Assembly: GCF_030013595.1 (NCBI RefSeq)
Contig: NZ_CP122771.1
Source: Escherichia coli
GTDB lineage: Bacteria > Pseudomonadota > Gammaproteobacteria > Enterobacterales > Enterobacteriaceae
DNA length: 64,000 nt
Strand: one strand, 5' to 3'
This document shows positions 9,394-59,200 of this stretch, piece after piece (the first letter of the stretch is position 1; each line of letters begins with the position of its first letter). The notes below the pieces were generated by a model. The model saw nothing but the letters and a program-made list of their open reading frames with translations. It was not told the DNA's origin and did not search any database. The translations under genes were made by a program, and so were the position numbers.

Positions 9394-9741
9394 ATGAGTG
9401 AAGATTATTTGAAAATGTTTACAGGTGTTGTTCTGTTAATATTTGTCATTATTGCCGGTTATTTCTTTTCTGAGCGTAATGACAGGAAAATGTTTCTCCT
9501 GAGCTCACTGGTTTTCCTTGTTATTAATATCGCGTGTTTATATGTGCTTACCGCCAGTCTCTGGTTTCTGTGTGGTGCAATTATGAGTCAGGGCGCAGCA
9601 CTGGTTGTTTCAATAGTTGCGGCCGCATTACCGGACGTTACGAGCTTCGACAGGTTCAGAAGAATATTTATCTGTATTATGTTGTCATCGGTATGGTCCG
9701 GAGTGATGTGGTTTTTTATAAGGGGGCTTATGACAGGCTAA
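9394..9741 (+). CDS. trbA: TrbA
   Basis: 115-aa hydrophobic protein following traF; same size and position as F TrbA. Confidence 0.8.
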   Translation: MSEDYLKMFTGVVLLIFVIIAGYFFSERNDRKMFLLSSLVFLVINIACLYVLTASLWFLCGAIMSQGAALVVSIVAAALPDVTSFDRFRRIFICIMLSSVWSGVMWFFIRGLMTG

Positions 9742-9796
9742 GTCATATAAAACGGTCATAAAAACCATACAAAATAATGAGGTTGATTACTGAAGA

Positions 9797-10057
9797 TCAT
9801 ATGATAAACCATACCGCAATCCAGTGGCTTCTGAATAGCTCGCAAAAATAAATATAGATAATTGAAAATAACCATAATACAACGATGCCTGCTGCGATAC
9901 TTAATAAACTTATTACAAGATAGTCAGGGAAGGCATTGACCGGTAATGAATGTGATGCTGCATATATCAGCGCAATAATTGCCGCATTTCCCAGTAACGA
10001 CTCTCTTATTATGTTTCTGATTATTTCCAGTTTTTCTTTAAAAGATCGCTTTTCCAT
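9797..10057 (-). CDS. artA: ArtA-like membrane protein on the anti-tra strand
   Basis: Only convincing minus-strand ORF in the tra operon; AT-rich and hydrophobic; position between trbA and traQ matches F artA. Confidence 0.55.
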   Translation of the reverse strand: MEKRSFKEKLEIIRNIIRESLLGNAAIIALIYAASHSLPVNAFPDYLVISLLSIAAGIVVLWLFSIIYIYFCELFRSHWIAVWFII

Positions 10058-32058: not shown

Positions 32059-32786
32059 TTTAACTGCAAGGGACTTCCCCATAAGGTTACAACCGTTCAT
32101 GTCATAAAGCGCCAGCCGTCAGCGTTACAGGGTGCAATGTATCTTTTAAACACCTGTTTATATCTCCTTTAAACTACTTAATTACATTCATTTAAAAAGA
32201 AAACCTATTCACTGCCTGTCCTGTGGACAGACAGATATGCACCTCCCACCGCAAGCGGCGGGCCCCGACCAGAAACTATTTAGTTACAACACTCAAATAC
32301 AACCACCGGAAGAACCCCGGTCCCGCGCAGAACTGAAACCACAAAGCCCCTCCTCATAACTGAAAAGCGAGGCCGCCCCCGCCCAAAGGGCGGGAACAAC
32401 ATCGCTTTTAATTATGAATGTTGTAACTACATTATCATCGCTGCCAGTTCTCTGGCTGGAAGTCCTCAGTACACGCTCGTAAGCGGCCCTCACGGCCCGC
32501 TAACGCGGAGATACGCCCCGACTTCGGGTAAACCCTTGTCGGGACCACTCCGACCGCGCACAGAAGCTCTCTCATGGCTGAAAGCGGGTATGGTCTGGCA
32601 GGGCCGGGGATGGGTAAGGTGAAATCTATCAATCAGTACCGGCTTACGCCGGGCTTCGGCGGTTTTACTCCTGTATCATATGAAACAACAGAGTGCCGCC
32701 TTCCATGCCGCTGATGCGGCATATCCTGGTGACGATATCTGAATCGTTATATACTGTGTATATACGTAGTAATGACGAGGTGATAA

Positions 32787-36886: not shown

Positions 36887-36904
36887 GAACTGAACTCTGT
36901 TAAA

Positions 36905-36928
36905 GGACGCTGTTGCGTCCTTTTTTCT
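36905..36928 (+). terminator. Rho-independent terminator after stbB
   Basis: GGACGC-tgtt-GCGTCC followed by a T-run. Confidence 0.6.
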
Positions 36929-37258
36929 TTTCCGACAAAGGATGTCGCCGGGCTCCTCTTTTTACTGCGCCGGCTGACGCGGCGCGGCAGGAACGCTGCC
37001 TGTGGTCAGTATCCCGCGTCCGGCCGGGCACGGGACGGGCGCTTTTACCGCTCCCGGCTGGCGTCGGTGGCAGTGTACGCCAGCCCGTCGCCCTTTTCTG
37101 ATGAACGCCCTTCAAGCCGCTTTCGCGGCATATCCTCGCCGTCAAACAGACGACGGCTGCGGTATTCCACGGTCGGCCTGACCCGTTATCGGACGCGGTG
37201 AACAGCCCACAGGCCGCGGGGAACGGGCGCCACAGGGGCGCCCTCCCGGTGCTCTCTG
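36924..37258 (+). repeat. Leading-region repeat type A, copy 1 (Frpo/ssi-like)
   Basis: About 335 bp nearly identical to 38244-38567; GC-rich with multiple hairpins, upstream of a leading-region gene. Confidence 0.7.
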
Positions 37259-37286
37259 CTGAAGCAGAAGTGAGAGGAGAATTCCC

Positions 37287-38213
37287 ATGCCAAACTGGTG
37301 CTCAAATCGTATGCATTTTTCTGGTGAACCGGCACAGATTGCTGAGATTAAACGACTGGCCAGCGGTGCAGTCACACCGTTTTATCGCCGCGCCACAAAT
37401 GAAGGTATTCAGCTGTTTCTGGCCGGAAGTGCCGGACTTCTGCAGACCACTGAAGATGTGCAGTTTGAACCGTGCCCCGGAGTGACGGCTGCCGGACGTG
37501 GTGTTGTATCGCCGGAGAATATCGCGTTCACCTGCTGGCTGACACACCTGCAGAACGGTGTGCTACTGGATGAACAAAACTGCCTGATGCTGCATGAACT
37601 CTGGCTGCAGAGTGGTACTGGCCAGCGTCGCTGGGAAGGATTACCGGATGAGGTCAGGGAAACCATCACCGTGCATTTCACCGCCAAAAGAGGTGACTGG
37701 TGTGGCTTCTGGAGTAACGAGGATGTATCGGTGTGGTGGAACCGTCTGTGTGACAATGTACTGCCGGAAAAAACCATGCCGTTTGACCTGCTGACGGTTC
37801 TGCCCACCCGCCTGGATGTTGAAGTGAATGGCTTTAACGGTGGTGTTCTGAATGGTGTTCCTTCTGCGTATCACTGGTATACGGAACAGTATGGCGTGAA
37901 GTGGCCTGTGGGGTATGAGGTGAATATCAGCCGTCAGGGAGAAAACTTCATTCAGGTGGATTTCGACACGCCGTGGTGTCAGCCGGAAAGCAACGTTGTT
38001 GCAGAATTAAGCCGCCGTTTCGGCTGCACGCTGGAGCACTGGTACGCCGAACAGGGCTGCAATTTCTGTGGCTGGCAGTTGTATGAGCGCGGAGAGCTCG
38101 TTGATGTGCTGTGGGGGGAACTGGAATGGTCTTCCCCGACAGATGACGATGAGCTGCCGGAAGTCACCGGACCTGCGTGGATAGTCGACAAGGTGGCGCA
38201 TTATGGCGGATGA
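37287..38213 (+). CDS. Conserved leading-region protein (308 aa, Trp/Cys-rich)
   Basis: RBS gagagga before ATG 37287; first gene after repeat type A copy 1. Confidence 0.6.
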   Translation: MPNWCSNRMHFSGEPAQIAEIKRLASGAVTPFYRRATNEGIQLFLAGSAGLLQTTEDVQFEPCPGVTAAGRGVVSPENIAFTCWLTHLQNGVLLDEQNCLMLHELWLQSGTGQRRWEGLPDEVRETITVHFTAKRGDWCGFWSNEDVSVWWNRLCDNVLPEKTMPFDLLTVLPTRLDVEVNGFNGGVLNGVPSAYHWYTEQYGVKWPVGYEVNISRQGENFIQVDFDTPWCQPESNVVAELSRRFGCTLEHWYAEQGCNFCGWQLYERGELVDVLWGELEWSSPTDDDELPEVTGPAWIVDKVAHYGG

Positions 38214-38227
38214 AGTATGACGGAGAC

Positions 38228-38250
38228 GGGCGGGCAACCGCCCGTTTCTT
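38228..38250 (+). terminator. Terminator-like hairpin after the 308-aa gene
   Basis: GGGCGG-gcaa-CCGCCC followed by a T-run. Confidence 0.5.
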
Positions 38251-38567
38251 TTCCGGTAAAGGATGTCGCCGTGCTCCTCTTTTTACTGCGCCGGCTGACG
38301 CGGCGCGGCATAAACGCTGCCTGTGGTCAGTGTCCCGCGTCCGGCGGGCACGGGACGGACGCTTTTACCGCTCCCGGCTGGCGTCAGTGACAGTGTACGC
38401 CAGCCCGTCGCCCTTTCTGATGAACGCCCTTCAAGCCGCTTTCGCGGCATAGCCTTGCCGTCAAACAGACGACGGCTGCGGTATTCCACGGTCGGCCTGA
38501 CCCGTTACCGGACGCGGTGAACAGCCCACAGGCCGCGGGGAACGGGCACCACAGGGGTGCCCTCCCG
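38244..38567 (+). repeat. Leading-region repeat type A, copy 2 (Frpo/ssi-like)
   Basis: Near-identical to 36924-37258. Confidence 0.7.
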
Positions 38568-38595
38568 GTGCCCTCTGTAAGAGAAGGAGGCTTTT

Positions 38596-39279
38596 ATGTC
38601 CCGTTTTATCCTGGGTGACTGCGTGCGAGTTATGGCCACGTTTCCGGACAATGCTGTCGATTTCATCCTCACCGACCCGCCGTATCTCGTCGGTTTCCGT
38701 GACCGTTCCGGGCGCACCATTGCCGGTGACGTTAACGATGACTGGCTGCAACCTGCCAGTAATGAGATGTACCGCGTACTCAAAAAAGACGCGTTAATGG
38801 TGAGCTTCTATGGCTGGAACCGCGTCGATCGCTTTATGGCCGCCTGGAAAAATGCGGGATTCAGCGTGGTTGGCCACCTGGTGTTTACCAAAACCTACAC
38901 ATCGAAGGCCGCATATGTGGGCTATCGCCACGAATGCGCCTACATCCTGGCAAAAGGACGTCCGGCGCTGCCTCAGAAGCCATTGCCCGACGTGCTGGGC
39001 TGGAAATATTCAGGCAACCGCCATCACCCGACGGAAAAGCCTGTTACCAGCCTGCAACCGCTCATTGAGAGCTTCACACATCCGAACGCGATTGTGCTGG
39101 ACCCGTTTGCAGGCAGCGGCTCAACATGCGTCGCCGCCCTCCAGTCCGGACGCCGGTATATCGGTATCGAGCTGCTTGAACAGTATCACCGTGCCGGACA
39201 GCAACGACTGGCCGCCGTGCAACGGGCCATGCAGCAGGGGGCCGCGAATGATAACTGGTTTGAACCGGAGGCGGCGTAA
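38596..39279 (+). CDS. Orphan DNA methyltransferase (DPPY motif IV, then FAGSGST motif I)
   Basis: 227 aa with ILTDPPYLVGF and LDPFAGSGSTCVAA; no adjacent restriction endonuclease. Confidence 0.8.
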   Translation: MSRFILGDCVRVMATFPDNAVDFILTDPPYLVGFRDRSGRTIAGDVNDDWLQPASNEMYRVLKKDALMVSFYGWNRVDRFMAAWKNAGFSVVGHLVFTKTYTSKAAYVGYRHECAYILAKGRPALPQKPLPDVLGWKYSGNRHHPTEKPVTSLQPLIESFTHPNAIVLDPFAGSGSTCVAALQSGRRYIGIELLEQYHRAGQQRLAAVQRAMQQGAANDNWFEPEAA

Positions 39280-39501
39280 ATGAACTATGCCGGACACGAA
39301 AAACTTCGCGCCGAAGTGGCGGAGGTGGCCAACACCATGTGTGACCTTCGGGCCAGGCTGAACGATATGGAGCATCGCTGTCGCTTTGATTCCGATGTGC
39401 TTGTTGAACGCCTGACACGCCAGACGCTGTATCGCGCCAATCGCCTGTTCATGGAGGCATATACCGAAATTCTGGAACTGGATTCCTGCTTCAAAGATTG
39501 A
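39280..39501 (+). CDS. Hypothetical small leading-region protein (73 aa)
   Basis: ATG immediately after the methyltransferase stop (TAAATG). Confidence 0.45.
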   Translation: MNYAGHEKLRAEVAEVANTMCDLRARLNDMEHRCRFDSDVLVERLTRQTLYRANRLFMEAYTEILELDSCFKD

Positions 39502-39512
39502 GGAGAGAGAGT

Positions 39513-39947
39513 ATGTACGGAACATGCGAAACGCTGTGCCGGGAGCTGGCAGCAAAGTATCCGGGAGACACGCCACTGATGCTGGTTATCTGGTCTCCGG
39601 AAGATATTCAGGCACTGGCTGACGGTATGGAAATTTCTCTGACCGATCATGAAATCAGGACCGTCCTGGCGCGCATGGAGGACATCCCGGAAGACCAGCG
39701 GACTGAATCCGGTATTTCTTCCGCCGCGGTGATGGAGATTATCAGCAACGTGAGCGAAAACCGCCAGGTGACCGTCCCTGCTGAACTGCTGGCGTCCCTG
39801 ATTCAGACCGCTGAACAGGCACTGTGGAAACGTGAGTGGGCCGCCCGTGATAACGGCCTCGCCGTCCCGGAATGCGTTACCCGCCGTCAGGCGGTGGTTA
39901 ATCAGGCCCGCACCCTGCTGAAAAACAACACACACGAAAACAACTGA
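39513..39947 (+). CDS. Hypothetical leading-region protein, paralog of 41662-42084
   Basis: RBS gaggagagaga before ATG 39513; shares MYxT... N-terminus and RQVTVPA motif with the paralog. Confidence 0.55.
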
Positions 39948-39997
39948 TGTTATCGCCGCCTGCCCTGCGGGCGGCGATACAGGGAGAACGCTTAATC

Positions 39998-40777
39998 ATG
40001 AACGAAAACAGCACGCTGAACGCACTGATTTGTCGTCACGCCCGTAACCTGCTGCTGGCGCAGGGCTGGCCGGAGGAGACGGATGTTGATCAGCGAGATC
40101 CACAGAACTATCCGGGCTGGATCAGCATTTACGTGCGGCTGGATGCGCCCCGGCTGGCGACGTTACTTATCAACCGTCACGGCGGCGTACTGCCGCCGCT
40201 CCTGGCCTCCGCCATTCAGAGACTGACCGGAACCGGGGCGGAACTGGTACTGTCCGGCAGTCAGTGGCAGTCGCTGCCGGTACTTCCGGCAGACGGAACG
40301 CAGGTGTCTTTCCCGTATGCCGGAGAATGGCTGACCGAAGACGAAATCAGGGCTGTTCTTGATGCGGTGCACGATGCGGTACGAAGCATCTGTTACCAGG
40401 TGGCAGAAGATGCGCGGCGTATCCGTGCGGCGCTGACCACCACCGGTCAGACGTTGCTGACCCGCCAGACGCGCCGCTTTCGCCTGGTCGTGAAGGAAAG
40501 CGATCACCCCTGCTGGCTCGATGAAGATGACGAAAACCTGCCCGTGGTGCTCGATGCCATCGTGAACCGGGGAGCACGTTTTTCGTCGGTGGAAATGTAT
40601 CTGGTCAGTGAGTGTATTGAGCATATCCTGTCCAGTGGGCTGGCCTGCGATGTGCTGCGTATACCGGATGAACCGCCCCGCCGCTGGTTTGACCGTGGTG
40701 TTCTGCGGGAAGTTGTCCGGGAAGCCCGGGCCGAAATCCGCAGCATGGCGGATGCCCTGACAAAAATCAGGGGCTGA
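39998..40777 (+). CDS. Hypothetical leading-region protein (259 aa)
   Basis: ATG 39998 preceded by agggaga; uninterrupted ORF. Confidence 0.55.
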
Positions 40778-41189
40778 TGATGGCGGGGAAAATCCCCGCC
40801 TTTTTCCTGCCGGTCCCCGGACAGAGCACAAAGGAAGTCGCCGCCGGCTCCGCTTTACCCGGCCATGCAGGCATGGCCTTGTGGGTTTTCAGTTATGTGG
40901 CCACAGTGTCGTGTGCGGGCTGTGCCGTGCCTCCATCTTAGCCGGGCTGGCGTTGATGCAAGGGTACGCTTCGCCGCTGCGGTCACCCGGTCCCTCCTTC
41001 CCGTCTGCCGTGATTTTCCGGTCGTTCACCCGCTCAGATTTCGCGGTCTCACCCTCCAACTCCCGCCAGCCGTGTGCGTCAGGCTGCGGCTTCCCTTGCG
41101 CCCTGTGCATCCCCGCCTTATCGCCCGGCTTTTATGGAGGCACGGCACCGCCCGGTGTCGCGGAATATGTGAACAACGGAGGAAATCCC

Positions 41190-41615
41190 ATGCAGTATGC
41201 AAAATCTGTCATTCTGAACGTTGAAGAGTGCGACCGTCTGTCTTTTCTGCCTTACCTGTTTGGCAACGATTTTCTGTATGCCGAGGCATCTGTGTACGCG
41301 CTGGCGAAAAAAATGATGCCGGAATATGAAGGCGGATTCTGGCACTTCATCCGCCTGCCGGACGGTGGCGGTTACATGATGCCGGATGGCGACCGTTTTC
41401 ATCTGGTCAACGGTGAAAACTGGTTTGACCGTACGGTCAGCGCCGATGCCGCAGGCATCATTCTGACCTCCCTTGTGATTAACCGCCAGTTGTGGCTGTA
41501 CCACGACAGCGGGGATGCGGGACTGACACACCTGTACCGGATGCGCGATGCGCAGTTGTGGAGCCACATCGAATTTCACCCCGAATGTAACGCGATTTAC
41601 GCGGCACTGGACTGA
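41190..41615 (+). CDS. ArdB/KlcA-family antirestriction protein
   Basis: 141 aa; motifs [20 protein letters not shown] and [10 protein letters not shown] resemble recalled KlcA/ArdB. Confidence 0.75.
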
Positions 41616-41661
41616 TTAACGGACGGGGCGGCAATGCCGTCCCTGTAAAGGCGACGAGAAC

Positions 41662-42084
41662 ATGTACTGTACTGTTAAAGAAATTATCCGCGAAGTGCTG
41701 GATACAGACGTGCCGGACAGTGAATGCGTTTTTGCCGTGGTGCTGACCCGTGGGGATGTGCGTCACATAGCCCAGGACTGGAACCTGTCAGACGATGAGC
41801 TGGAAACCGTCATGCAGCGGCTGGACGATGCCTTTGAGCATGGTGCGGATGTCAGCGTTGTTCACGACGTTGTTCGTGAACTGATGGAAGAAAAGCGCGC
41901 CAGCCGTCAGGTGACAGTCCCGGCGGTGATGCTGGAAAAAGTGATGGCGCTGGCAGGCAGTGAAATGAAGCGCCTGTATGCCGTCGGGAGTGAGAACGGG
42001 GGCGACGGTGACGCATTCGTCAGGGAAGAACGCGAAGCAATGGACGTTGTGTTACAGGCGCTGGACGGGGAGCACATGTCATGA
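41662..42084 (+). CDS. Hypothetical leading-region protein, paralog of 39513-39947
   Basis: 140 aa; shares N-terminal MYCT and RQVTVPA motif with the paralog. Confidence 0.55.
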   Translation: MYCTVKEIIREVLDTDVPDSECVFAVVLTRGDVRHIAQDWNLSDDELETVMQRLDDAFEHGADVSVVHDVVRELMEEKRASRQVTVPAVMLEKVMALAGSEMKRLYAVGSENGGDGDAFVREEREAMDVVLQALDGEHMS

Positions 42085-42272
42085 ATATCAGCACAGAAAC
42101 CCGCGAAATTCTGCGTAATTACAGGGCCGTGATTAATGCACGACGTCGTGAGATGGGGCAGAAACCGCTCACCACCGCGCAGGTTGTTGATGAAATCTGC
42201 GATTTTGTGGCGAATCAGCAGGCGGTTTTCCTCGGTGGTCACTACATCCTGCAGGGTAACAGAAACAGATGA
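42081..42272 (+). CDS. Hypothetical small protein (63 aa)
   Basis: ATGA overlap with the preceding gene. Confidence 0.4.
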   Translation: MNISTETREILRNYRAVINARRREMGQKPLTTAQVVDEICDFVANQQAVFLGGHYILQGNRNR

Positions 42273-42458
42273 TACAGAGGCAGGCGGTGGAGGCCGCCTG
42301 TCAGCCCGCGCGAAAACCCCTGGCAGGCTGGCGCCTGCCGGAAGGGAAGCGGGCCACGCTGGCGCGTCGCCCGTTACCCTTCCCGTTTGTGATGTGTCCG
42401 GAATGTTTTTTTCTGATGGTATGACCCTGTTCCTGTTGTTGTTGTTGTTCTTTTCTCT

Positions 42459-43072
42459 GCTGCCCTGATTCTGACTACTGCAGTGTTGTCCTGTCTGCCT
42501 GCGCACCTTCGGCTCCCGGCTGCCTGGCGGCATCCGGTCGTCAGGCCCGACTCCGACAGGCAGCTGCTGGCGCACCCGCCAGTCTCCGCCGAACCCGCTG
42601 GCGCGGTTTCGGGCTGTCGCTACGGTCCGATGCGTGAAAACCCCGGGCTTGCAGCGACCGTTCCGGTCGCGCCACCCTTGTCGCGCCGTGGCCTGCGCTC
42701 CCGGCATCCCGGCAAAAGGCCGCCGGGATGTAAGGCGCAACGCCGTTTCGCGCACGCGCTCTCCGTCGTTGCGGCGGGTCCCTGCTCATTGCCTGCCGGG
42801 TGCCACACACCCGTATGAGTCCCTGTCGCCGGGGGCTGATACAGCCACAACCTGCCGCACTGACTGTCCAGGGTAAATGAACAGCCCACAAAATTTTTTA
42901 CCCAAAACCCGGTAAAAAATTTTGCGTTCTGCCCGGGACAGGTGCGTCAGGCCGTGGCAGTGATGCCCCTTGCGGCGAAGGTTCTCAAACGGGTGAAGTT
43001 CATACCACAGGGAATACAGCAGCAGGTTCCCGCGAAACGTCAAAACCGCGGCTCCCGAAACTCAACGGGTGA
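42459..43072 (+). repeat. Leading-region repeat type B, copy 1 (Frpo-like; contains a 14-bp perfect hairpin at 42888-42926)
   Basis: About 600 bp shared with 45926-46373 and 56247-56835; conserved hairpin CAAAATTTTTTACC/GGTAAAAAATTTTG. Confidence 0.7.
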
Positions 43073-43303
43073 TGTTCTTTAAAAATCAGGATTTATTTCA
43101 GGCTCCGGCAATATGCATTTATTTGTTCTGTCAGTCATCCGGCTGGCAGGTAATGAGAACGCAGGAACAGAAGGAGGAAAACACCGGAGAACGTCAGACG
43201 CAGATATGAAAAAAGCAGGTCAGGGACCTGCTTAATCCACACCGCAGAGACTGCACGAACAGTCTTTACGGTTTCATTAATTAACGTCATAAGAGGCTAA
43301 ATT

Positions 43304-43534
43304 ATGACAGTAAGTATTGTTTCACCTTCCGCAGCGGCTGTAAAGCCCCGCCGTCATCCCCGTTTCAGACGCGAAGACATCCCCGCGCCGGAAATTGACC
43401 CCGTGCTGAAAGCCTTCGGGCGACACATTGCCCGGAGTTTTCACCGGGGGCGTGGTGTACACATCCCCGCCATGAAAAACACGACCTTCGGGCAGGTGCT
43501 CCGCACACTCGAACTGAAACGCGCTTTTAACTGA
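43304..43534 (+). CDS. Hypothetical small basic protein (76 aa)
   Basis: ATG with upstream gaggc; first ORF after repeat B copy 1. Confidence 0.4.
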   Translation: MTVSIVSPSAAAVKPRRHPRFRREDIPAPEIDPVLKAFGRHIARSFHRGRGVHIPAMKNTTFGQVLRTLELKRAFN

Positions 43535-43585
43535 TGAGGTGAGCCGCCCCGCGAGGGGCGGCAACAGACGGAAGGAGAACATTTT

Positions 43586-44947
43586 ATGACATTAGCAGCA
43601 ATCACCATGACCGCCCCGGAAGCCGCCAGCCCTGTGCAGATGTACCGCGCGACCTACTCACCGGATGACAACAAACTGCGCCTGTATGCCGTGTCACGTC
43701 TTGACCCGGAGACGTATAAAAAAGTGCATGATGCCGGTTTCCGCTGGGCACCAAAACAGGAGCTGTTTGTCGCGCTAGCCTGGACACCGGGCCGGGAAGA
43801 CGTGCTCCTCTCACTTGCCGGAGAGATTGAGGATGAAGACAGCACGCTCGCTGAACGTCAGGAAGCACGGGCGGAGCGGTTTACCGGATACAGCGGAAAG
43901 CGGGCCAGTGAATCCGCACAGGCACTTGATGAAGTGGAAAGACTGGCCGCGATGATCCCGCCCGGTCAGCCCATTCTTGTGGGGCATCACAGCGAACGCC
44001 GCACCCGTCGTGATGCGCAGCGTATTGAAAACGGCATGAAACGAGCAGTGATGCTCTTTGAACGTGCGGAATACTGGGAAGAGCGGGCGCGGTCGGCACG
44101 GCTTCACGCGAAGTATAAAGAACGTCCGGACGTTCGCTGGCGTCGCATCAAAAAAATCGAAGCTGATTTGCGCAAGGCTGAAAAGACCATCGCACAGTCG
44201 CAGAAATATCTGACGATGTGGCGGGCTGAATCGCTGGATCTGAATATGGCAAAATTCATCAGCAGTTATGACCGTATCAGTGCCTGTTTCCCGCTGGATA
44301 CGTATCCGCGCCCGGCAGAAAAAAGCCAGTATGAAGGGAGCCGGTCGTTATGGTCGGCCCTGGATGATGACATCATCACCACGGAGCAGGCCCGCGAAAT
44401 TGCGATCCGCTGTCATGAACGGCAGATTCAGCATCAACAACGCTGGGTTAACCACTATCAGAACCGCCTGATCTATGAGCGTACCATGCTGGACGAAAGC
44501 GGCGGCGTGGTTACCCGGACACAGGATTTTGAGCCGGGCGGACAGGTTTTCAGCCGGGGCGAGTGGCTGACCATCATCCGTGTGAACAAAAGCAACGGGG
44601 CGGTGAGTTCAGTCACAACGCCGAATTACAGTTTCCTCGGGTACAGCGGCACGATGAAAGTGACGCCCGATCGCATCACGGACTACAAAGCACCATCGGC
44701 AGAAGAGGCTGCCGTCGCCAGCCAGGCCGCGAAGCGTCCGCCGGTAGTCAACTATCCGGGGGAAGGTTTCCGGGAAATGACAAAGGCACAGTGGGCCGCC
44801 CTGCCCCGGGACTGTAAGGCCGTGCGCAGTGTGGCAGAAGCAGAAGACCACGGGGCATACCGCTACCGCCGCACAATGGACAATAATTTCCGTCTGGTGA
44901 ATGTGTATATCACCGACATGAAAATTACGGAAATCCCACAGAAATAA
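43586..44947 (+). CDS. Conserved leading-region protein (453 aa)
   Basis: RBS aaggaga before ATG 43586; long uninterrupted ORF. Confidence 0.6.
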   Translation: MTLAAITMTAPEAASPVQMYRATYSPDDNKLRLYAVSRLDPETYKKVHDAGFRWAPKQELFVALAWTPGREDVLLSLAGEIEDEDSTLAERQEARAERFTGYSGKRASESAQALDEVERLAAMIPPGQPILVGHHSERRTRRDAQRIENGMKRAVMLFERAEYWEERARSARLHAKYKERPDVRWRRIKKIEADLRKAEKTIAQSQKYLTMWRAESLDLNMAKFISSYDRISACFPLDTYPRPAEKSQYEGSRSLWSALDDDIITTEQAREIAIRCHERQIQHQQRWVNHYQNRLIYERTMLDESGGVVTRTQDFEPGGQVFSRGEWLTIIRVNKSNGAVSSVTTPNYSFLGYSGTMKVTPDRITDYKAPSAEEAAVASQAAKRPPVVNYPGEGFREMTKAQWAALPRDCKAVRSVAEAEDHGAYRYRRTMDNNFRLVNVYITDMKITEIPQK

Positions 44948-44993
44948 GGTATATCCCCCCGGGAAATCCCCGGGGGATGACGGAGATAATGAC

Positions 44994-45557
44994 ATGCACA
45001 GTCAGTTAAGAGAACGTATCCGGCTGATGCGCGCAAGGCTGGATAACGCCGCGCCGGTTGCTGAAATCCGGGCTGAATCTCAGCTTTTTGTGACTCCTGC
45101 CCCGGTCTGTGATCGCCTGGTGACGCTGGCGGAGATCAGCAACCGTGATCACATTCTGGAACCCTCTGCCGGCACCGGGGCCATACTGCGGGCGATTCGG
45201 GATACCGCGCCGGGGGCCATGTGTGATGCGGTGGAAATCAACAGCGGGCTGGTCCGGTATCTGCGGGAAAATTTTAACGGTGTCAGGGTTCAGTGTGGCG
45301 ACTTCATGGAATGGCAGCCGGTGCAGTATTACAGCCGGGTTATCATGAATCCGCCGTTCAGCCACGGGCAGGATATCCGGCATATCCTGCGGGCCTTTTC
45401 CCTGTTGCGTCCGGGTGGCGTGCTGGTCGCCGTCTGTCTCAACGGACCACGCCAGCAGGAGAAGCTGTTGCCGTTTTCTGACGTCCGCGAGGAGCTGCCG
45501 CGCGGCACGTTTGCTTATACCCGTGTTCCGACGATGATTATTCGTCTGCGGGCCTGA
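44994..45557 (+). CDS. Orphan SAM-dependent DNA methyltransferase (EPSAGTGA motif I, then NPPF motif IV)
   Basis: 187 aa with ILEPSAGTGAIL and VIMNPPFSHG; no partner endonuclease. Confidence 0.7.
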   Translation: MHSQLRERIRLMRARLDNAAPVAEIRAESQLFVTPAPVCDRLVTLAEISNRDHILEPSAGTGAILRAIRDTAPGAMCDAVEINSGLVRYLRENFNGVRVQCGDFMEWQPVQYYSRVIMNPPFSHGQDIRHILRAFSLLRPGGVLVAVCLNGPRQQEKLLPFSDVREELPRGTFAYTRVPTMIIRLRA

Positions 45558-45721
45558 AGACGCCGGGCAGGCGGGAGGATAAATGCCTGTCTGTCCGCGC
45601 CGGGAAAAGACCGCGCGCCGGTGGCGCTGAAAGGGGCCGCGCTGACGCGCCGCCCCTTTCATTACGCGGACGTTCTGACGGGGGCTTCTGTCTTTTCAGA
45701 CCTGTCATTTGCCTGTTACTG

Positions 45722-45775
45722 ATGATGTTGTTGTTCCTGCTACTGCTACTGCTACTGCTACTGCTACTGCTACTG
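45722..45775 (+). repeat. Microsatellite (GTT)n followed by (CTGCTA)6 upstream of repeat B copy 2
   Basis: Six perfect tandem CTGCTA units read directly; the equivalent position in copy 1 (42432-42450) carries (GTT)5. Confidence 0.85.
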
Positions 45776-45925
45776 TTCTTCTTTTTTCTGATGCTCTCAT
45801 TACTGTCTGTTTTGTTGTTCTCCTGCTTATGCCTTTTCCGGGCGTCCCCCTGGCGGGGCGGGCTGTCGTGAACGGAGCCAGCGAAGCTGTCTCCGCCCTG
45901 GCGGGCTTCCATCCCTGACGCCAAA

Positions 45926-46373
45926 CCCCCTGGCTTGCAGCGACCGTTCCGGTCGCGCCGCCTCTGTCGCGCCGTGACCTGCGCTCCCGGCATCCCGGCA
46001 AAAGGCCGCCGGGATGTGAGGGGCAACGCCGTTTCGCGCACGCGCTCTTCGTCGTTGCGGCGGGTGCCTGCCCGTTGTTGTATCCGGTGCCCTGCACCCG
46101 TTTAAGCCCCTGTCGCCGGGGGCAAAGACAGCCACAACCGTCTCCGCCAGTCCAGGGGTGAAATGCACATCCCACAAAAGTTTTTGCCCAAAAGCCGGCA
46201 AAAACTTTTGTGGTCTGCCCCCGGACAGTCGTTTCCGGCCGTGGCAGTGATGCCCCTTGCGGCGAAGGTTCTCAAACGGGTGATGGTTAATACCGGAGGG
46301 AACAAACGGCAGGTCCCCGCAAAACGTCAAAACCGCGGCTCCCGAAACTCAACGGGTGATGGGGGCTGAAAAC
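45926..46373 (+). repeat. Leading-region repeat type B, copy 2 (5'-truncated; hairpin at 46174-46212)
   Basis: Aligns with copy 1 from ...ggcttgcagcgaccgttcc onward; hairpin arms carry compensatory changes. Confidence 0.7.
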
Positions 46374-46394: not shown

Positions 46395-46925
46395 ATGGCA
46401 GTTCGTGGAATTAACAAGGTCATTCTTGTCGGTCGCCTGGGAAAAGATCCGGAAGTCCGTTACATCCCCAACGGGGGCGCAGTGGCAAACCTGCAGGTGG
46501 CCACGTCAGAAAGCTGGCGTGACAAACAGACGGGGGAGATGCGGGAGCAGACGGAATGGCATCGCGTGGTGTTGTTCGGCAAGCTCGCGGAAGTGGCTGG
46601 TGAATATTTGCGTAAGGGTGCGCAGGTCTACATCGAGGGGCAACTCCGTACCCGTAGCTGGGACGACAACAACGGCGTCACCCGTTACATCACTGAAATC
46701 CTTGTTAAAAACACGGGCACCATGCAGATGCTGGGACGTGCCGCAGGTACTCAGACTCAGCCGGAAGAGGCGCAACAGTTCAGCGGTCAGCCTCAGCCGG
46801 AATCACAGCCGGAACCGAAAAAAGGTGGCGCGAAAACGAAAGGCCGTGGACGTAAGGCCGCGCAGCCGGAGCCTCAGCAGCCGTCTGAACCCGCGTATGA
46901 CTTCGATGACGACATTCCGTTCTAA
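46395..46925 (+). CDS. ssb: Plasmid single-stranded DNA-binding protein
   Basis: [48 protein letters not shown]... OB-fold and acidic C-terminal tail DFDDDIPF. Confidence 0.9.
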
Positions 46926-53063: not shown

Positions 53064-53374
53064 CTTAAATGTCCCTTTACTGCGAAAATGGACATTAGTA
53101 TCGGAAACAGGAAAGGGAGGCGAAAGACGGTTTAAATGAGACGGTTACCGTGATGCGGCAACAATCACATGGATTTCCCGTGAACGGTCTGAATGAGCGG
53201 ATTATTTTCAGGGAAAGTGAGTGTGGTCAGCGTGCAGGTATATGGGCTATGATGTGCCCGGCGCTTGAGGCTTTCTGCCTCATGACGTGAAGGTGGTTTG
53301 TTGCCGTGTTGTGTGGCAGAAAGAAGATAGCCCCGTAGTAAGTTAATTTTCATTAACCACCACGAGGCATCCCT

Positions 53375-53587
53375 ATGTCTAGTCCACATCAGGATAGCCT
53401 CTTACCGCGCTTTGCGCAAGGAGAAGAAGGCCATGAAACTACCACGAAGTTCCCTTGTCTGGTGTGTGTTGATCGTGTGTCTCACACTGTTGATATTCAC
53501 TTATCTGACACGAAAATCGCTGTGCGAGATTCGTTACAGAGACGGACACAGGGAGGTGGCGGCTTTCATGGCTTACGAATCCGGTAA
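53375..53587 (+). CDS. mok: Mok (FlmC) leader ORF overlapping hok
   Basis: 70-codon ORF overlapping hok in a different frame, as in hok/sok loci. Confidence 0.5.
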
Positions 53588-53902: not shown

Positions 53903-56246
53903 GGGTCGGGTAGCAGCGGCACATTGCTGCGCCGCCGCCCCCTAAGAACGGAGCGTGCGAGTTTTCCCGCACTCCGCTCAAGCCTTTATAAGTGCTTTCG
54001 GTGAGCACCGGCTTCCCTGCTGTGTAACTGTCGGTGGCAGTTCGGATGTAACAACTCGAGATTGGTCAGTTCGTCACTGCCGCCCATAACTTTCCTGATC
54101 CGGTGATGTATATTCCATCCGGTCTGGTTGGTTATGAGTTGTCCGCACTGCGGACAGTGTTTCCCCTGCCTCTTCCAGAGTTGAACTACTGTCTTCATCT
54201 TCTTTGATTTGCCTTTCCAGATTAGATCCAGACGACGTTCAAAGTAGATTTCCATTCCGGGGGTGTATGGTGTTGCTTCGCCTTTGATTTTTATATGGCG
54301 CTTTATCGGTGTTTCCATTGCCCGGAAGAGTGTCAGAATTTTCCCTTCCGGGGTTATGGCTTTAAAGATCCAGCGCCTGCCTTCAAAGGAGAAGTATCGT
54401 CCGGCGATCCACCGCAATCCTTTCCGGGGATGCCGTCTTACACACCATCGCCATATAGCTCGCCAGATTTGGGTGTCGACATAATTAAATGTTTCTTTCG
54501 CCACGACGTGTCGGTGATAGGTAGCCCATCCCCGGATCACCGGGTTTAGCTGGCCTATCAGTTTCCATGCCGGGAGCGTCGGATTGCGTTTAATTATTTC
54601 TCTGACTTTACAGAGGAAGTTCTTCAGGTTTTTCTTCGACGGTTTAATCAGCATTTTACCGTTGTACTTCCTGACGTTCTGCCCTAAAAAGTCGAAGCCT
54701 TTATCTATATGTGTGATCGCTGTTTTTTCTTCCGACAGTTCCAGCCCTCGTTCGCGCATGAAAGCTGCAATCAGTGGTCTGACCTCATTTTCCAGCAATT
54801 CACGGGAGCTGCCTGAACAGATGAAATCATCAGCATATCTCACATAATTCACCTGGTGCTTTGCACTGTGATAACCACTTTTCCTGAACGTTTGCATCAG
54901 TTCCTTCTCCAGTCCGTCCAGAGCCATGTTGGCGAGAACAGGGGATATGATGCCTCCCTGCGGTGTCCCGCTGTTCGTATGGTTAAACACGCCTCTTTCC
55001 ATGTAACCTGCTTTCAACCATTTTTTAAGCAGTCTCCTGTCCATCGGAATATGGGAAAGCAGCCAGTCATGGCTGATGTTATCGAAACACCCTTTAATAT
55101 CGCCCTCCAGTATCCATTTGGGCGATACTTTCTGGCTCATCCGCAGAAAAATGGACTCAATGGCGTCATGCGTGCTGCGCATTGGTCTGAAACCATAGCT
55201 GTTATGGTCAGCAGTGGTCTCGGATACGGGTTCCAGAGCCAGCAGCCACAGTGCCTGCATGGCCCGGTCCCTCATTGTGGGTATGCCCAGCGGTCGCGTT
55301 TTGCCGTTTGATTTTGGGATATGTATTCGCCGTAGTGGCTGTGGCCTGTAACCACACAGATTCAGGCTGCATATTCCTTCCCATTTCTCCTTCGGTGTGT
55401 GCCATATTTTTCCGTCAATACCGGGTGTCCTTTTACCGGTATTTTCAGTTACACGCCTGACAGCCACGGCTTTGCCGGAGAATGAGCGGGTGAGGATGCG
55501 CTGTAGTTCTCTGACCTGCCGCCATTGTTGCTGTCGGGTTGCCTTTGCAATCCGTAACTGTAGCTTTCGCACCCGGGCATGGCATGCTTTCCAGTTTATG
55601 GTGTGCCAGCCTGTCGGGTGGGGTATCGTGGACACACTGATGTGTGTATTCATCTCGCTGATATCCTTTTGACTGCTTTACAGCTTTTCATGCAATTAAA
55701 GACCAGACGGAAGTCTGCCCGCTTTCGCGTCGGGGAACCTGCCCCGTATCCCGGTTATTACGGCCGGGCATTCGCTTTTTCCGTCCTCCTATGCCCGCAC
55801 CGCTAACAGTGTTCCTTGCGGTTCACCTGCCTGTGAGGCAGCGATACGGGTTTACCAGGTTCCGCTTAACATACAGAGGGTCAGGGCGGGTTCTGTCTCT
55901 TCACCGGGGGTCTCTGCGCCCATGTGCTCCCTGTGCGCGAGGTAGCAACCGGACCCCGTACCTTTTGGTTCAGGCCTGTCAGCATCTTTGGCCTGTTGCC
56001 GATAACGGTGTTTATCAACAGTTCACATGTGTTAACCCTTCTGACCAGCCTTGCTCTCCTGCCGCATGATGCTTGCAGCAAGGTAAAGCCCCTCACGGGG
56101 CTTTACCCGGGCTGACGCCCGGCTCTCGTTGTCCCGGGAGCTTCAGACCCCGCCGTTGCCGGCAACGCCTGTCCCGGTAGGCTACAGCTAATGGGATAGC
56201 TGGTTTTATCAATGTAAAACAATACGTTAAGCGACTTCCTGTCGCA
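53903..56246 (-). mobile_element. Group II intron (about 2.34 kb) inserted in a type B leading-region repeat; low-coordinate boundary uncertain by about 10 bp
   Basis: Minus-strand 5' end GTGCGAC at 56246; domain V GAGCGGAGTGCGGGAAAACTCGCACGCTCCGTTC at 53946-53979; flanks rejoin to match uninterrupted copy 1 at 42459-42510. Confidence 0.8.
53986..55653 (-). CDS. Group II intron-encoded protein (reverse transcriptase / maturase / HNH endonuclease)
   Basis: 555 aa with RT motifs (YADD), maturase X region and C-terminal HNH-like Cys/His cluster. Confidence 0.9.
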   Translation of the reverse strand: MNTHISVSTIPHPTGWHTINWKACHARVRKLQLRIAKATRQQQWRQVRELQRILTRSFSGKAVAVRRVTENTGKRTPGIDGKIWHTPKEKWEGICSLNLCGYRPQPLRRIHIPKSNGKTRPLGIPTMRDRAMQALWLLALEPVSETTADHNSYGFRPMRSTHDAIESIFLRMSQKVSPKWILEGDIKGCFDNISHDWLLSHIPMDRRLLKKWLKAGYMERGVFNHTNSGTPQGGIISPVLANMALDGLEKELMQTFRKSGYHSAKHQVNYVRYADDFICSGSSRELLENEVRPLIAAFMRERGLELSEEKTAITHIDKGFDFLGQNVRKYNGKMLIKPSKKNLKNFLCKVREIIKRNPTLPAWKLIGQLNPVIRGWATYHRHVVAKETFNYVDTQIWRAIWRWCVRRHPRKGLRWIAGRYFSFEGRRWIFKAITPEGKILTLFRAMETPIKRHIKIKGEATPYTPGMEIYFERRLDLIWKGKSKKMKTVVQLWKRQGKHCPQCGQLITNQTGWNIHHRIRKVMGGSDELTNLELLHPNCHRQLHSREAGAHRKHL

Positions 56247-56835
56247 CGCGCACCTTCGGCTCCCGGCTGCCTGGCGGCATCCGGTCGTCAGGCCCGACTC
56301 CGACAGGCAGCTGCTGGCGCACCTGCCAGTCTCCGCCGAACCCGCTGGCGCGGTTTCGGGCTGTCGCTACGGTCCGATGCGTGAAAACCCCGGGCTTGCA
56401 GCGACCGTTCCGGTCGCGCCGCCTCTGTCGCGCCGTGGCCTGCGCTCCCGGCATCCCGGCAAAAGGCCGCCGGGATGTAAGGCGCAACGCCGTTTCGCAA
56501 ACCGCGCTTCACGTCGTTGCGGCGGGTCCCTGCCCGTTGTTGTGTCCGGTGCCATTCACCTGTTTAAGCCCCTGTCGCCGGGGGCATAGACAGCCACAAC
56601 CGTCTCCGCCAGTCCAGGGGTGAAATGCACATCCCGCAAAACTTTTTGCCCAGAAGCAGGCAAAAACTTTTGCGGTCTGCCCCCGGACAGTCGTTTCCGG
56701 CCGTGGCAGTGATGCCCCATGCGGCGAAGGTTCTCAAACAGGTGATGGTGAATACCGGAGGGAACAAAAGGCAGGTCCCCGCAAAACGTCAAAACCGCGG
56801 CTCCCGAAACTCAACAGATGATGGGGGCTGAAAAC
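56247..56835 (+). repeat. Leading-region repeat type B, copy 3 (its 5' portion at 53862-53902 is separated by the intron; hairpin at 56635-56674)
   Basis: Aligns with copy 1 from gcgcaccttcggctcccggctgcctggcgg onward. Confidence 0.7.
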
Positions 56836-56855: not shown

Positions 56856-57143
56856 ATGAGTACCCGAAATATCCACGTTAACACCGCGTCGTACACGCTT
56901 CTTGTTGCCGGGAAGAAAAAAAACACCGGGGAAGAGTGGGACGTCCTGGAATTCAGCAGCCTGACTGAGCTGAAAAAATATCGCAAAAGCCACCCGGAAA
57001 AGATGGCCTTCAGTTATAGCTACGCGCTCAGTCAGGGTGTGGATAAGCAGTTCCGCCATATCAACATTGCGGAAGCCGATCACTTCAAACAGTTCCTGCG
57101 TCAGATTAAGCGTGCCGGCCTCGATATCCGGGCGATCTGCTGA
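56856..57143 (+). CDS. Hypothetical leading-region protein (95 aa)
   Basis: RBS gagaggaga before ATG 56856; first ORF after repeat B copy 3. Confidence 0.5.
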   Translation: MSTRNIHVNTASYTLLVAGKKKNTGEEWDVLEFSSLTELKKYRKSHPEKMAFSYSYALSQGVDKQFRHINIAEADHFKQFLRQIKRAGLDIRAIC

Positions 57144-57260
57144 CCGGATGTGATGAATACCCCTCCTGATTGTTGCAATCTTGTTAATGGAGATCGGGGG
57201 GATGATATTAAGCGGAAAAATTTTTTATTAAATTTATTCTTTCATAAAGGAGTAGCTGTT

Positions 57261-58082
57261 ATGCGATTAGCTTCCCGTTTTGGTCGGTATAATTCCATCC
57301 GCCGTGAACGTCCTTTAACGGATGATGAATTAATGCAGTTCGTGCCTTCGGTATTTTCCGGTGATAAACATGAGTCCCGGAGTGAACGTTATACGTATAT
57401 TCCAACAATCAATATCATCAATAAGTTACGTGATGAAGGTTTCCAGCCATTCTTTGCCTGTCAGAGTCGGGTTCGTGATTTGGGACGTCGCGAATACAGT
57501 AAACATATGTTACGTCTTCGCAGGGAAGGGCATATTAACGGACAGGAAGTTCCTGAAATTATCCTGCTTAATTCACATGATGGTTCATCCAGTTATCAGA
57601 TGATCCCCGGAATTTTTCGTTTTGTCTGCACAAATGGCCTGGTGTGCGGAAATAATTTTGGCGAAATCCGCGTTCCACATAAAGGTGATATTGTCGGGCA
57701 GGTTATCGAGGGAGCGTATGAAGTGCTCGGTGTCTTTGATAAGGTCACTGATAATATGGAGGCGATGAAAGAAATTCATCTTAACAGTGACGAGCAACAT
57801 TTATTTGGCAGAGCTGCACTGATGGTCAGGTATGAAGATGAAAATAAAACGCCAGTGACACCTGAACAGATAATTACTCCCCGTCGTCGGGAAGACAAAC
57901 AGAACGATCTCTGGACAACCTGGCAGCGGGTTCAGGAGAATATGATAAAAGGTGGATTATCGGGGCGAAGTGCCTCCGGGAAAAATACCAGGACAAGAGC
58001 CATTACAGGTATTGATGGTGATATAAGAATCAACAAGGCGTTATGGGTGATTGCCGAACAGTTCAGAAAGTGGAAGTCATGA
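57261..58082 (+). CDS. Conserved leading-region protein (273 aa)
   Basis: RBS aagga then ATG 57261; uninterrupted ORF. Confidence 0.55.
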   Translation: MRLASRFGRYNSIRRERPLTDDELMQFVPSVFSGDKHESRSERYTYIPTINIINKLRDEGFQPFFACQSRVRDLGRREYSKHMLRLRREGHINGQEVPEIILLNSHDGSSSYQMIPGIFRFVCTNGLVCGNNFGEIRVPHKGDIVGQVIEGAYEVLGVFDKVTDNMEAMKEIHLNSDEQHLFGRAALMVRYEDENKTPVTPEQIITPRRREDKQNDLWTTWQRVQENMIKGGLSGRSASGKNTRTRAITGIDGDIRINKALWVIAEQFRKWKS

Positions 58083-58120: not shown

Positions 58121-58378
58121 ACTTATATTATCATTTTTCGGCATTGCTGTGTCGTCTGATATACCTCAATTTCATCGACCGGCTTTCCGGTTGTCTGTAA
58201 ATATTGTGCCCGCGAAAAATGGTCTGGCAGGAGGCTGCGCAGTTACCGGGTATATATAAGATGGGTTCCCGCTTCGCGGGGCTTCGGCCAGTCAGTATTG
58301 TCACTCATATGATATTTTTGTGTGTGGCCTTCCATGCCGCTTTTGCGGCATAACCGGTATCTGACAATGTCTGTAAGA

Positions 58379-58888
58379 TTAATTGTTCTGCACGCTGTTA
58401 ATTTCCGGAAGTGATTTCTTCGTGGCCGGAAGCCGGATACCTTTACTGCTTTTTATCCCGGTATAAATCCGGTAAACCTCTGATGCGTAGGCAAGACGTC
58501 TCTGGTTCTGGCGTTCGGATTTCCTGAATCCTGCATTGTATGCACCAACGGCCTCCCAGGTGACGCCCCATTTTTTAAATGCTATTGCCAGATAATAAGC
58601 ACCGGTATAAATGTTCATGCAGGGATCTGTTGTCAGATGTTCCGGCTTAATTCCATAGCGGGCCAGTTCGTTAAAATGCTGGGAATCTACCTGCATCAGT
58701 CCGCTGCCATATCCCGTTACCGGATTAATACCGATGGCATTAACCCGGTAACGGGATTCTTTCCATGATATTGCTCTCAGTAAATCAGGATCTATTTTGT
58801 AATCCCGGCCTGCAAGATCAAAGCAATCAGTGGCATGGCAGATCTCATTTATAAACATCAGGCAGATGGCTAACATCCATTTTTTCAT
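58379..58888 (-). CDS. Lytic transglycosylase (SLT domain; F orf169 / gene X equivalent)
   Basis: 169 aa from ATG 58888; signal peptide; SLT motifs [10 protein letters not shown] and GLMQV; adjacent to oriT. Confidence 0.85.
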
Positions 58889-58934: not shown

Positions 58935-59200
58935 ACAAAAAGGCTCAACAGGTTGGTGGTTCTCACCACCAAAAGCACCACACACTACGCAAAAACAAGT
59001 TTTTGCTGATTTGCCTTTTAAATCATGTAATTAACAAATGCTATTTATATTTAATAATTCTGAATTATTAAATAGAGAGTCGTTGGCGATCCTGTTACGA
59101 CCCTATAGCGACCCTTATTAGGATCAGTACTGACAATTTTCATGAAAAACATTGATATATATTAGGGGCGCCACTAGCGCCGGATCGCATTTTTTTATAG
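58935..59200 (+). other. oriT region with R100-type nic sequence (nic near 58979/58980 on the minus strand)
   Basis: Minus-strand TTTGCGTAGTGTGT^GGTGCTTTTGGTGGTGAGAACCACC matches recalled F-family oriT with R100-type nic core; followed by AT-rich region and inverted repeats before traM. Confidence 0.7.

Follow-up and report, generated by a model that had tools for sequence, protein, structure and literature searches.

The locus and its transferred strand

Repeated hairpin elements located in front of leading-region genes were analysed in 64,000 nucleotides (nt) of Escherichia coli DNA (contig NZ_CP122771.1 of assembly GCF_030013595.1; this whole stretch is referred to as the window, and all positions are counted from its first letter). 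An initial annotation had listed two families of repeats, type A and type B, as candidates for Frpo-like promoters that are active on transferred single-stranded DNA (ssDNA). The analysis described here indicates that the repeats are very probably single-strand DNA promoters of an F-like leading region.

The window was identified as an IncF leading region by homology, gene order and nick motif. Gene annotation was taken from NZ_CP122686, an IncF MOBF conjugative plasmid with 99.4% identity to the window, and at least 5000 plasmid records match the region at ≥90% identity. The order of the leading-region genes is classical (parM/stbB, DUF1281, methylase, klcA-type antirestriction, ssb, parB-like, psiB, hok/sok, DUF932, lytic transglycosylase, traM/traJ), and all of them lie on the plus strand. 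The nick-site motif of oriT, GCGTAGTGTGTGGTGCTTT, was found by motif matching at 58972-58990 on the minus strand, with the tra genes, FinP and the 5′ untranslated region of traJ to its right. Because of this arrangement the minus strand is the transferred (T) strand, and it is therefore the template for the plus-strand leading genes; the region to the left of the nick (~58.98 kb) enters first.

Repeat families and adjoining genes

Both families, with two copies of type A and three of type B, were recovered by a repeat finder and by BLAST, and they are mutually unrelated. The type A copies A1 (36924-37258) and A2 (38245-38577) are 95% identical across 335 nt. The type B copies B1 (42489/42637-43074), B2 (45923-46373) and B3 (56237-56835) show 85-94% identity by BLAST, and their 47-nt core occurs three times in the window, against zero occurrences expected in shuffled sequences. 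The range originally given for the repeats, 36924-46373, contains A1, A2, B1 and B2, but B3 lies ~10 kb outside it. The placement of the repeats immediately upstream of genes was found for A1, A2, B2 and B3 (16-29 nt) and not for B1, which is separated from its first open reading frame (ORF) by 230 nt.

As delimited by homology and DNA folding, A1 extends over 36924-37261 on the minus strand and stops 26-29 nt short of the start of the DUF1281 gene (37287-38213, plus strand; identified from the ORF and the NZ_CP122686 annotation), which it would drive. A2 (38245-38580, minus strand) stops 16-19 nt short of the start of a gene for an M.EcoGIX-family DNA methylase (38596-39279, plus strand; identified from the ORF, annotation and protein comparison), the product of which is 89% identical to M.EcoGIX. 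The type B elements were delimited by homology and folding, likewise on the minus strand. B1 (42489-43074) contains a long hairpin at 42780-43040 and is followed by a 76-amino-acid (aa) ORF starting at 43304, then by a DUF3560 gene and an S-adenosylmethionine (SAM) methyltransferase gene, this module occupying 43304-45557. B2 (45923-46373, hairpin 46060-46325) ends ~22 nt before ssb (46395-46925), and B3 (56237-56835, hairpin 56520-56785) ends ~21 nt before a 95-aa ORF (56856-57143) that is followed by the DUF932 gene (57150-58082).

Type B repeats

The sequence D90178, listed in Supplementary Table 2 of Samuel et al. 2024 (PMC11541004), was used as the reference for F ssiD/Frpo. It was aligned over ~340-350 nt with the minus strand of B3 (96.0%; 56827-56478), B2 (92.0%; 46365-46019) and B1 (78.2%; 43063-42731), so the likeness to F Frpo that had been proposed holds for type B. 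F (NC_002483) has two homologues of type B, one in front of ssb and one in front of the 95-aa/DUF932 pair, and these are assigned as Frpo2 and Frpo1, respectively, of Couturier et al.; B3 is regarded as the orthologue of F Frpo1. In transconjugants, early expression depends on the F Frpo elements (Couturier et al. 2023, PMC9849209). From the ssiD homology and the positions of Frpo1 and Frpo2 in F, type B is assigned to the class 1 (Frpo/ssp1) single-strand promoters.

Type B shares with F Frpo/ssiD (Masai & Arai 1997) the positions upstream of ssb and of a ygeA/ygeB-like pair, and both consist of a long imperfect hairpin with an A/T-rich apex. F lacks the module of 76-aa ORF, DUF3560 and SAM methyltransferase genes, whereas the plasmid studied here has B1 as a third copy in front of that module; an 11-kb query containing the module was covered to ≥80% in at least 2259 plasmid records. 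B3 is 97.5% identical to F at 63.5-64.0 kb. B2 is nearer to F Frpo1 (93.6%) than to Frpo2 (88.5%), and B1 is nearest to the Frpo2 locus (92.5%); such mosaic copies suggest recombination or gene conversion between copies.

The class 1 elements of IncI1 plasmids (ssi1-3 of ColIb-P9/pESBL; Bates et al. 1999; Nasim et al. 2004; Wen et al. 2025) have a central hairpin that is 76-78% identical to that of type B, the ColIb-P9 ssi sequences matching over the central 115 nt. The A/T-rich apex is common to the IncI1 and type B elements, as is an invariant duplex, CTGTCC/GGAC(A/T)G; the basal stem and the gene-proximal end, by contrast, are completely different in the two groups. To the left of the hairpin, B1 and B3 carry a GC-rich extension that matches pESBL (IncI1) at 93-96% identity.

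This stretch measures 150-290 nt, has a GC content of ~70% and flanks the hairpin on its left in B1 (42489-42780), B3 (56237-56520) and the IncI1 ssi elements; B2 lacks it. Both of its strands give strong folds (~-88 kcal/mol per 300 nt). Just left of B1 (42426-42461) and B2 (45709-45837) there are pyrimidine-rich tracts and short tandem repeats (cctgttgttgttgtt; ctgctactgctactg). With Rfam, AS-pc01 (antisense to pHK01_035) was matched at 43210-43309 on the minus strand (98.9 bits), between B1 and the beginning of its 76-aa ORF; a terminator-like hairpin was noted within the match at 43233-43213. A group II intron (53905-56203, minus strand; Rfam matches to D1-D4 at 56054-56203 and to the 3′ domains at 53905-53981) sits ~30 nt left of B3, between B3 and the hok/sok locus (sok, 53259-53435, Rfam). 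The 555-aa ORF at 53986-55653 is presumably the reverse transcriptase/maturase of this intron.

Type A repeats

BLAST found no similarity between type A and F ssiD/Frpo; the proposed alignment with Frpo therefore fails for this family, which lies outside class 1. Type A was matched instead to the large hairpin upstream of the M.EcoGIX gene. A1 is 96.7% identical to F and 94.0% identical to this hairpin in pESBL (locus L005, 1605-1987), and A2 is 96.9% identical to the same pESBL sequence and 95.3% identical to its F counterpart. In Wen et al. 2025 (PMC12672017), RNA sequencing showed early induction of the M.EcoGIX operon, which is preceded by a large hairpin unrelated to Frpo; a start site within the hairpin was mapped in pESBL by 5′RACE (rapid amplification of cDNA ends), the hairpin was designated a class 3 ssDNA promoter, and conservation in F was stated for classes 2 and 3. 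The F elements were named ssp1a/b, ssp2 and ssp3 in a 2026 preprint (10.64898/2026.01.09.698686), in which ssp3, swapped in as a portable ssDNA promoter, drives yfgB.

Type A is assigned on this homology to class 3/ssp3, that is, to elements that would be Frpo-like in action and belong to a different family. A2 lies directly 5′ of an M.EcoGIX-family methylase gene, which is the canonical site for class 3. A1 does not share this position; because it precedes DUF1281 and not the methylase, it is classed as a paralogous class 3 copy in a different context. The suggestion that the repeats are promoters active on transferred ssDNA is supported, type B being matched to Frpo and type A to known class 3 hairpins (94-97% identity).

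Class 3 of pESBL and ssp3 of F are present in one copy each, whereas this plasmid has two. The DUF1281 gene of pESBL has no type A element in front of it; here, A1 replaces its usual upstream region. In most DUF1281-bearing plasmids the match starts only at the ribosome-binding site of DUF1281, and the junction of type A with DUF1281 was found in at least 369 plasmid records as well as in Citrobacter loci, where the paralogues are old and divergent. DUF1281 was not found named among the induced operons in the available part of PMC12672017. Type A itself is conserved at >90% in at least 5000 plasmid records, with 94-97% identity between IncF and IncI1.

An intrinsic terminator (hairpin plus T run, 36902-36923) was called by a scan directly before A1. 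A terminator-like hairpin with a T run was also seen by eye before A2 (~38224-38252), where the scan made no call. Terminators at these positions would shield the type A units from transcription that starts further upstream.

Folding and strand asymmetry

The region 34.0-59.5 kb was folded with DNA parameters in 300-nt scan windows against a threshold of < -75 kcal/mol, which is the criterion given in PMC12672017. The deepest minima on the T strand coincided with the repeats (-89.3 kcal/mol for A1, -89.5 kcal/mol for A2, and -94.7, -92.8 and -97.8 kcal/mol for type B), against a background of -48 ± 14 kcal/mol. A weaker minimum at ~45375 (-76.2 kcal/mol, equal on both strands) was also under the threshold. 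When folded individually on the minus strand, the elements gave -96.1 kcal/mol for A1 (dinucleotide-shuffle z -5.06), -91.3 kcal/mol for A2 (z -4.10), -73.4 kcal/mol for B1 (z -7.98), -86.2 kcal/mol for B2 (z -10.31) and -86.7 kcal/mol for B3 (z -11.20), the folded type B hairpins being 261-266 nt long. No shuffled sequence folded as well as any of the five repeats. The T strand was more stable than its complement in all 16 elements folded from the window, F and pESBL, by 0.5-15.5 kcal/mol. Most class 1 copies have more G.T pairs on the T strand, on which the mismatches are mostly purine-purine. The ssDNA folding that had been suggested as a check thus gave a stable structure for every copy, a better one on the T strand, and none as good among the shuffles.

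Covariation

The compensatory change described in the initial annotation is real, and distinguishes B2 from B3: cacaaaa (46173-46179) is paired with ttttgtg (46206-46212) in B2, and cgcaaaa (56635-56641) with ttttgcg (56668-56674) in B3, to which the second of the quoted pairs belongs. B1 combines cacaaaa with ttttgcg, which gives an A.C mismatch on the plus strand and a G.T wobble on the minus strand. Over 23 homologues the quoted pair is G.T in 10, G-C in 9 and A-T in 1. Among the three copies in the window, seven pairs are changed on both sides and still paired, and seven are changed on one side by way of G.T; paired columns vary in 22% of cases, unpaired columns in 48%. Between A1 and A2, 17 of the 20 variable columns are unpaired, one pair is exchanged between G-C and A-T, and one G-C is changed to G.T.

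Homologues of type A were collected by a genome scan with the methylase protein, which gave 38 loci from other species. Among 19 distinct homologues (down to 73% identity), 97.5% of cells were paired, against 35-46% in slid controls; 13 pairs and 61 cells were double-changed, where the slid controls gave 0-5 pairs and 0-16 cells, and none of 500 shuffles reached these values. For type B, 23 class 1 homologues gave 80.4% paired (controls 41-48%) and 116 double-changed cells (controls 45-67), figures to be read with the caveat that the IncI1 rows align poorly. RNAalifold applied to the mixed IncF/IncI1 alignment of class 1 had yielded 35 pairs only, owing to indels in the apex, and was replaced by projection of the B3 structure, which is biased. 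The z scores of the folds (-4 to -11), together with compensatory changes across 19-23 homologues, sustain the proposed selection on secondary structure.

The same data bear on the view that the repeats are functionless or selfish DNA (elements like repetitive extragenic palindromes or miniature inverted-repeat transposable elements, or recombination scars) or are coding sequences for 'hypothetical proteins'. A RefSeq 'hypothetical protein' coding sequence overlies the class 3 hairpin in F (locus L002, 5785-6090), in pESBL (locus L005, 1595-1906) and in thousands of plasmids, and the mosaic copies suggest inter-copy recombination. However, homologues of type A are separated by frameshifting indels of 1-2 nt, substitutions fall mainly at unpaired positions, those in stems being compensatory, and the repeats have neither terminal inverted repeats nor target duplications; moreover, type A is 94-97% identical between IncF and IncI1, while the downstream methylase proteins are 89% identical. 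This explanation is regarded as most improbable, and the annotated coding sequence over type A is a spurious gene call, because of the frameshifting indels and the pattern of covariation among homologues.

It is also very unlikely that the hairpins act as RNA, namely as structured 5′ leaders (attenuators, stability elements or targets of small RNAs) of transcripts from duplex promoters further upstream. Plus-sense RNA could indeed fold the same inverted repeats, and a small hairpin nearest the type A genes (alignment columns 22-38), in which four of six pairs are changed on both sides, lies past the predicted transcription start (see below) and is probably transcribed. The plus-sense strand, however, folds less well in 16 of 16 elements, which speaks against the main stems acting at the level of RNA; the wobbles of the T strand, such as that in B1, would be A.C mismatches in mRNA. 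Furthermore, the intrinsic terminator at 36902-36923 stands just upstream of A1, sigma-70 consensus scans found no promoter upstream of or inside the repeats, and an Rfam search gave no family for the repeat regions.

A third hairpin family

A class 2 (ssp2-type) hairpin, absent from the families listed originally, was identified by its inverted repeat and by homology at 40860-41190 on the minus strand, upstream of a klcA/ardB-like antirestriction gene (41191-41616). It is 95.9% identical to the element upstream of klcA in pESBL, 94.1% identical to that upstream of ardA in pESBL, 96.9% identical to F, and 81% identical to Frpo'4 of PMC11541004. Its arms of 32 nt are 88% complementary, with many A.G mismatches on the T strand, and it folds at -81.3 kcal/mol on the minus strand against -73.2 kcal/mol on the plus strand (-74.8 kcal/mol in the 300-nt scan window). 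The known positions of the class 2/ssp2 hairpin are upstream of klcA (yfgB) and ardA. F ssp2 was reported also to block complementary-strand synthesis until the hairpin is removed by UvrD (preprint 10.64898/2026.01.09.698686).

A module shared with ssiE-type priming signals

A homologue of F ssiE (58196-58384, minus strand, 97.9% identity to D90180) adjoins oriT. It contains a 30-nt module, GG(A/T)TATGCCGC-N4-GCGGC(A/T)TG(G)AAGGC, which was located by regular-expression search at four sites, all on the T strand: in the invariant cores of A1 (37109-37132) and A2 (38428-38451), in the ssiE homologue (58328-58352), and in an ssiE-like element at 32.7 kb (32699-32723) downstream of the RepFIIA replicon. 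The ssiE homologue and the 32.7-kb element are putative primase-dependent 'G sites' (Nomura et al. 1991). A type A profile picked up both of them with nhmmer (E values of 0.003 and 0.02). The likeness of ssiE to type A is confined to ~30 nt, the remainder being unrelated, and a BLAST search with ssiE found no type A copy; type A is not placed in the G-site/ssiE family. The betaproteobacterial relatives of type A, described below, have not retained the small GCCGC/GCGGC hairpin.

In a rival reading, the repeats would be mainly single-strand initiation (ssi) signals, at which complementary-strand synthesis is primed by RNA polymerase transcripts or by DnaG, with gene expression being incidental. 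Frpo was originally isolated under the name ssiD, and transcripts from it prime DNA synthesis in vitro (summary in PMC12672017); early conversion downstream of ssp1 is rifampicin-sensitive in vivo (preprint 10.64898/2026.01.09.698686); and all four occurrences of the module, in the type A cores, the ssiE homologue and the 32.7-kb element, are on the T strand. Each copy of the repeats nevertheless directly precedes a gene in the same orientation that has a ribosome-binding site, and ssp3 placed before yfgB restores anti-restriction function (preprint 10.64898/2026.01.09.698686). Priming and transcription are compatible, so that priming is better regarded as a second function than as a rival one, and as the main role of the repeats it is unlikely.

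Promoter boxes and predicted start sites

Linear sigma-70 consensus scans of both strands gave no conventional promoter within the repeats, and a position-weight scan of all homologues gave weak sites only; a simple contiguous promoter for class 3 was rejected on these grounds. A conserved TA(C/A)A(C/A)T in the helix 11 loop was likewise rejected as a -10 box, as there is no template strand opposite it.

The consensus fold of class 3 is modelled as a long basal stem that ends in a three-way junction. In the enterobacterial consensus, TTGA ends one helix and CC begins the next, with a 77-nt branch between them; we infer that a -35 box, TTGA|CC, could be assembled by coaxial stacking across the junction on the continuous template 5′-GGTCA(A/G)-3′. 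The -10-like hexamer (G/C)A(C/T)ACT follows 18-19 nt further on, in a mismatch-rich stretch that leaves position 2 (A) and position 6 (T) of the hexamer unpaired. In A1 the putative boxes span 37008-37115 on the minus strand (TTGA from 37115 to 37112, CC at 37034 and 37033, GATACT from 37013 to 37008; columns 152-155, 233-234 and 254-259 of the type A alignment), with a predicted start at ~37211. In A2 they would span 38329-38434 on the minus strand (TTGA from 38434 to 38431, CC at 38354 and 38353, GACACT from 38334 to 38329), with a start at ~38530. These starts leave 5′ leaders of 76 and 66 nt, respectively, that contain the small covarying hairpin. TTGA|CC with a -10-like hexamer at a distance of 17-19 nt was found in 19 of 19 enterobacterial and in five of seven betaproteobacterial copies, and the predicted +1 position is a purine in each of the 19 enterobacterial copies. 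With DNA parameters, imposing the full set of RNAalifold consensus pairs on class 3 raises the energy by 7-30 kcal/mol; the core helices alone are near-optimal.

The betaproteobacterial hairpins (loci L031, L032, L033, L036, L038 and L039, ~9650-10000, minus strand) precede methylase homologues with 61-67% identity and retain the type A motifs GTGGAATA, TATGCCGCGAAAG and CTTGAA. Independent minimum free energy (MFE) folds of the copies from Achromobacter, Bordetella and Paraburkholderia gave TTGA|CC, 17 nt and GA(C/T)(T/G)GT with an unrelated branch of 44-49 nt in five of seven loci, the A at position 2 of the -10 box being unpaired in all five of these folds. In six of the seven loci the T-strand fold exceeds that of the complement in stability by 13-19 kcal/mol. 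The class 3 family thus seems to reach elements of the Burkholderiales.

The model can be combined into a tentative proposal, which we consider possible and not probable: class 3 would carry a junction-built TTGA|CC (with a 44-77 nt branch) and unpaired -10 A and T, kept into the Burkholderiales; it would have been copied repeatedly, as a portable cassette, to positions before other genes such as DUF1281; and primase might enter through the ssiE-like module.

In class 1 the sole invariant duplex is CTGTCC/GGAC(A/T)G beside the A/T-rich apex. TGGAC(A/T) is a plausible -35 box; no convincing match to a -10 box was found by alignment and position-weight scanning of the homologues. The A/T-rich apex, which is the stem noted in the initial annotation, would fit an UP-like element.

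Proposed mode of action

The minus strand would enter the recipient with its 5′ end first, starting from the nick at ~58.98 kb. Before the complement is synthesised, each repeat on the entering strand would fold into an imperfect stem-loop of 260-340 nt, the paired stem of which would mimic a duplex sigma-70 promoter. Host RNA polymerase would then start at the hairpin with the entering strand as template and read rightward into the adjoining genes. The type A copies would serve DUF1281 and the M.EcoGIX-type methylase; B1 would serve the small ORF and the genes for DUF3560 and the SAM methyltransferase, B2 the genes from ssb through psiB/psiA, and B3 the ygeA/ygeB-like pair. Synthesis of the complementary strand would turn the hairpins into plain duplex and switch the promoters off, so that proteins for establishment and anti-defence would be made in a brief burst. 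A further role of the transcripts may be the priming of the complementary strand.

Homology, strand, position, fold and covariation were computed here; the ssDNA-specific activity is taken from the literature on orthologues, and the boxes are deduced. Several points weigh against this interpretation. Activity is extrapolated from orthologues with 92-97% identity (A2, B2, B3) and, for A1 and B1, from paralogues in new contexts. B1 in particular is only 78% identical to ssiD, and an antisense RNA gene falls in the 230 nt that separate it from its first ORF. The consensus structures were obtained by using RNAalifold with RNA parameters, and that of class 1 was projected from B3, a copy in the window itself. 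With DNA parameters the three-way junction is the MFE structure in just two of the 19 enterobacterial copies, the others being 0-7.5 kcal/mol above the MFE (4.2 kcal/mol for A2), and junction helices 5 and 6 hardly vary, so that covariation is uninformative there. For class 1, the best linear box candidates, TTGAGA-17-CATCAC and TTGACG-17-TTTTGT, are weak.

Significance

The repeats are extra and orthologous copies of two promoter kinds that have already been described, and the essentials are in the literature. Less standard are the positions of A1 before DUF1281 and of B1 before the DUF3560/methyltransferase module, both of which recur in hundreds to thousands of plasmids. The residual novelty would consist of the proposed class 3 box model, its possible reach into the Burkholderiales and the 30-nt module held in common with ssiE-type signals. 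The comparative set (19 class 3 and 23 class 1 homologues plus the betaproteobacterial relatives) yields predictions of boxes and start sites that can be tested.

For annotation, five repeats and one hairpin that are labelled 'hypothetical protein' or left blank in databases are given a reading as regulatory elements, which would define at least six early transcription units. The DUF1281 and DUF3560/SAM methyltransferase units were not found in the available parts of the F and pESBL studies; they are therefore candidates for a role in establishment or anti-defence. Single-strand promoters govern the first minutes of a conjugative plasmid in a new host; they set the timing of the early burst of anti-restriction, anti-SOS and methylase proteins, on which the success of transfer depends, that of resistance plasmids included.

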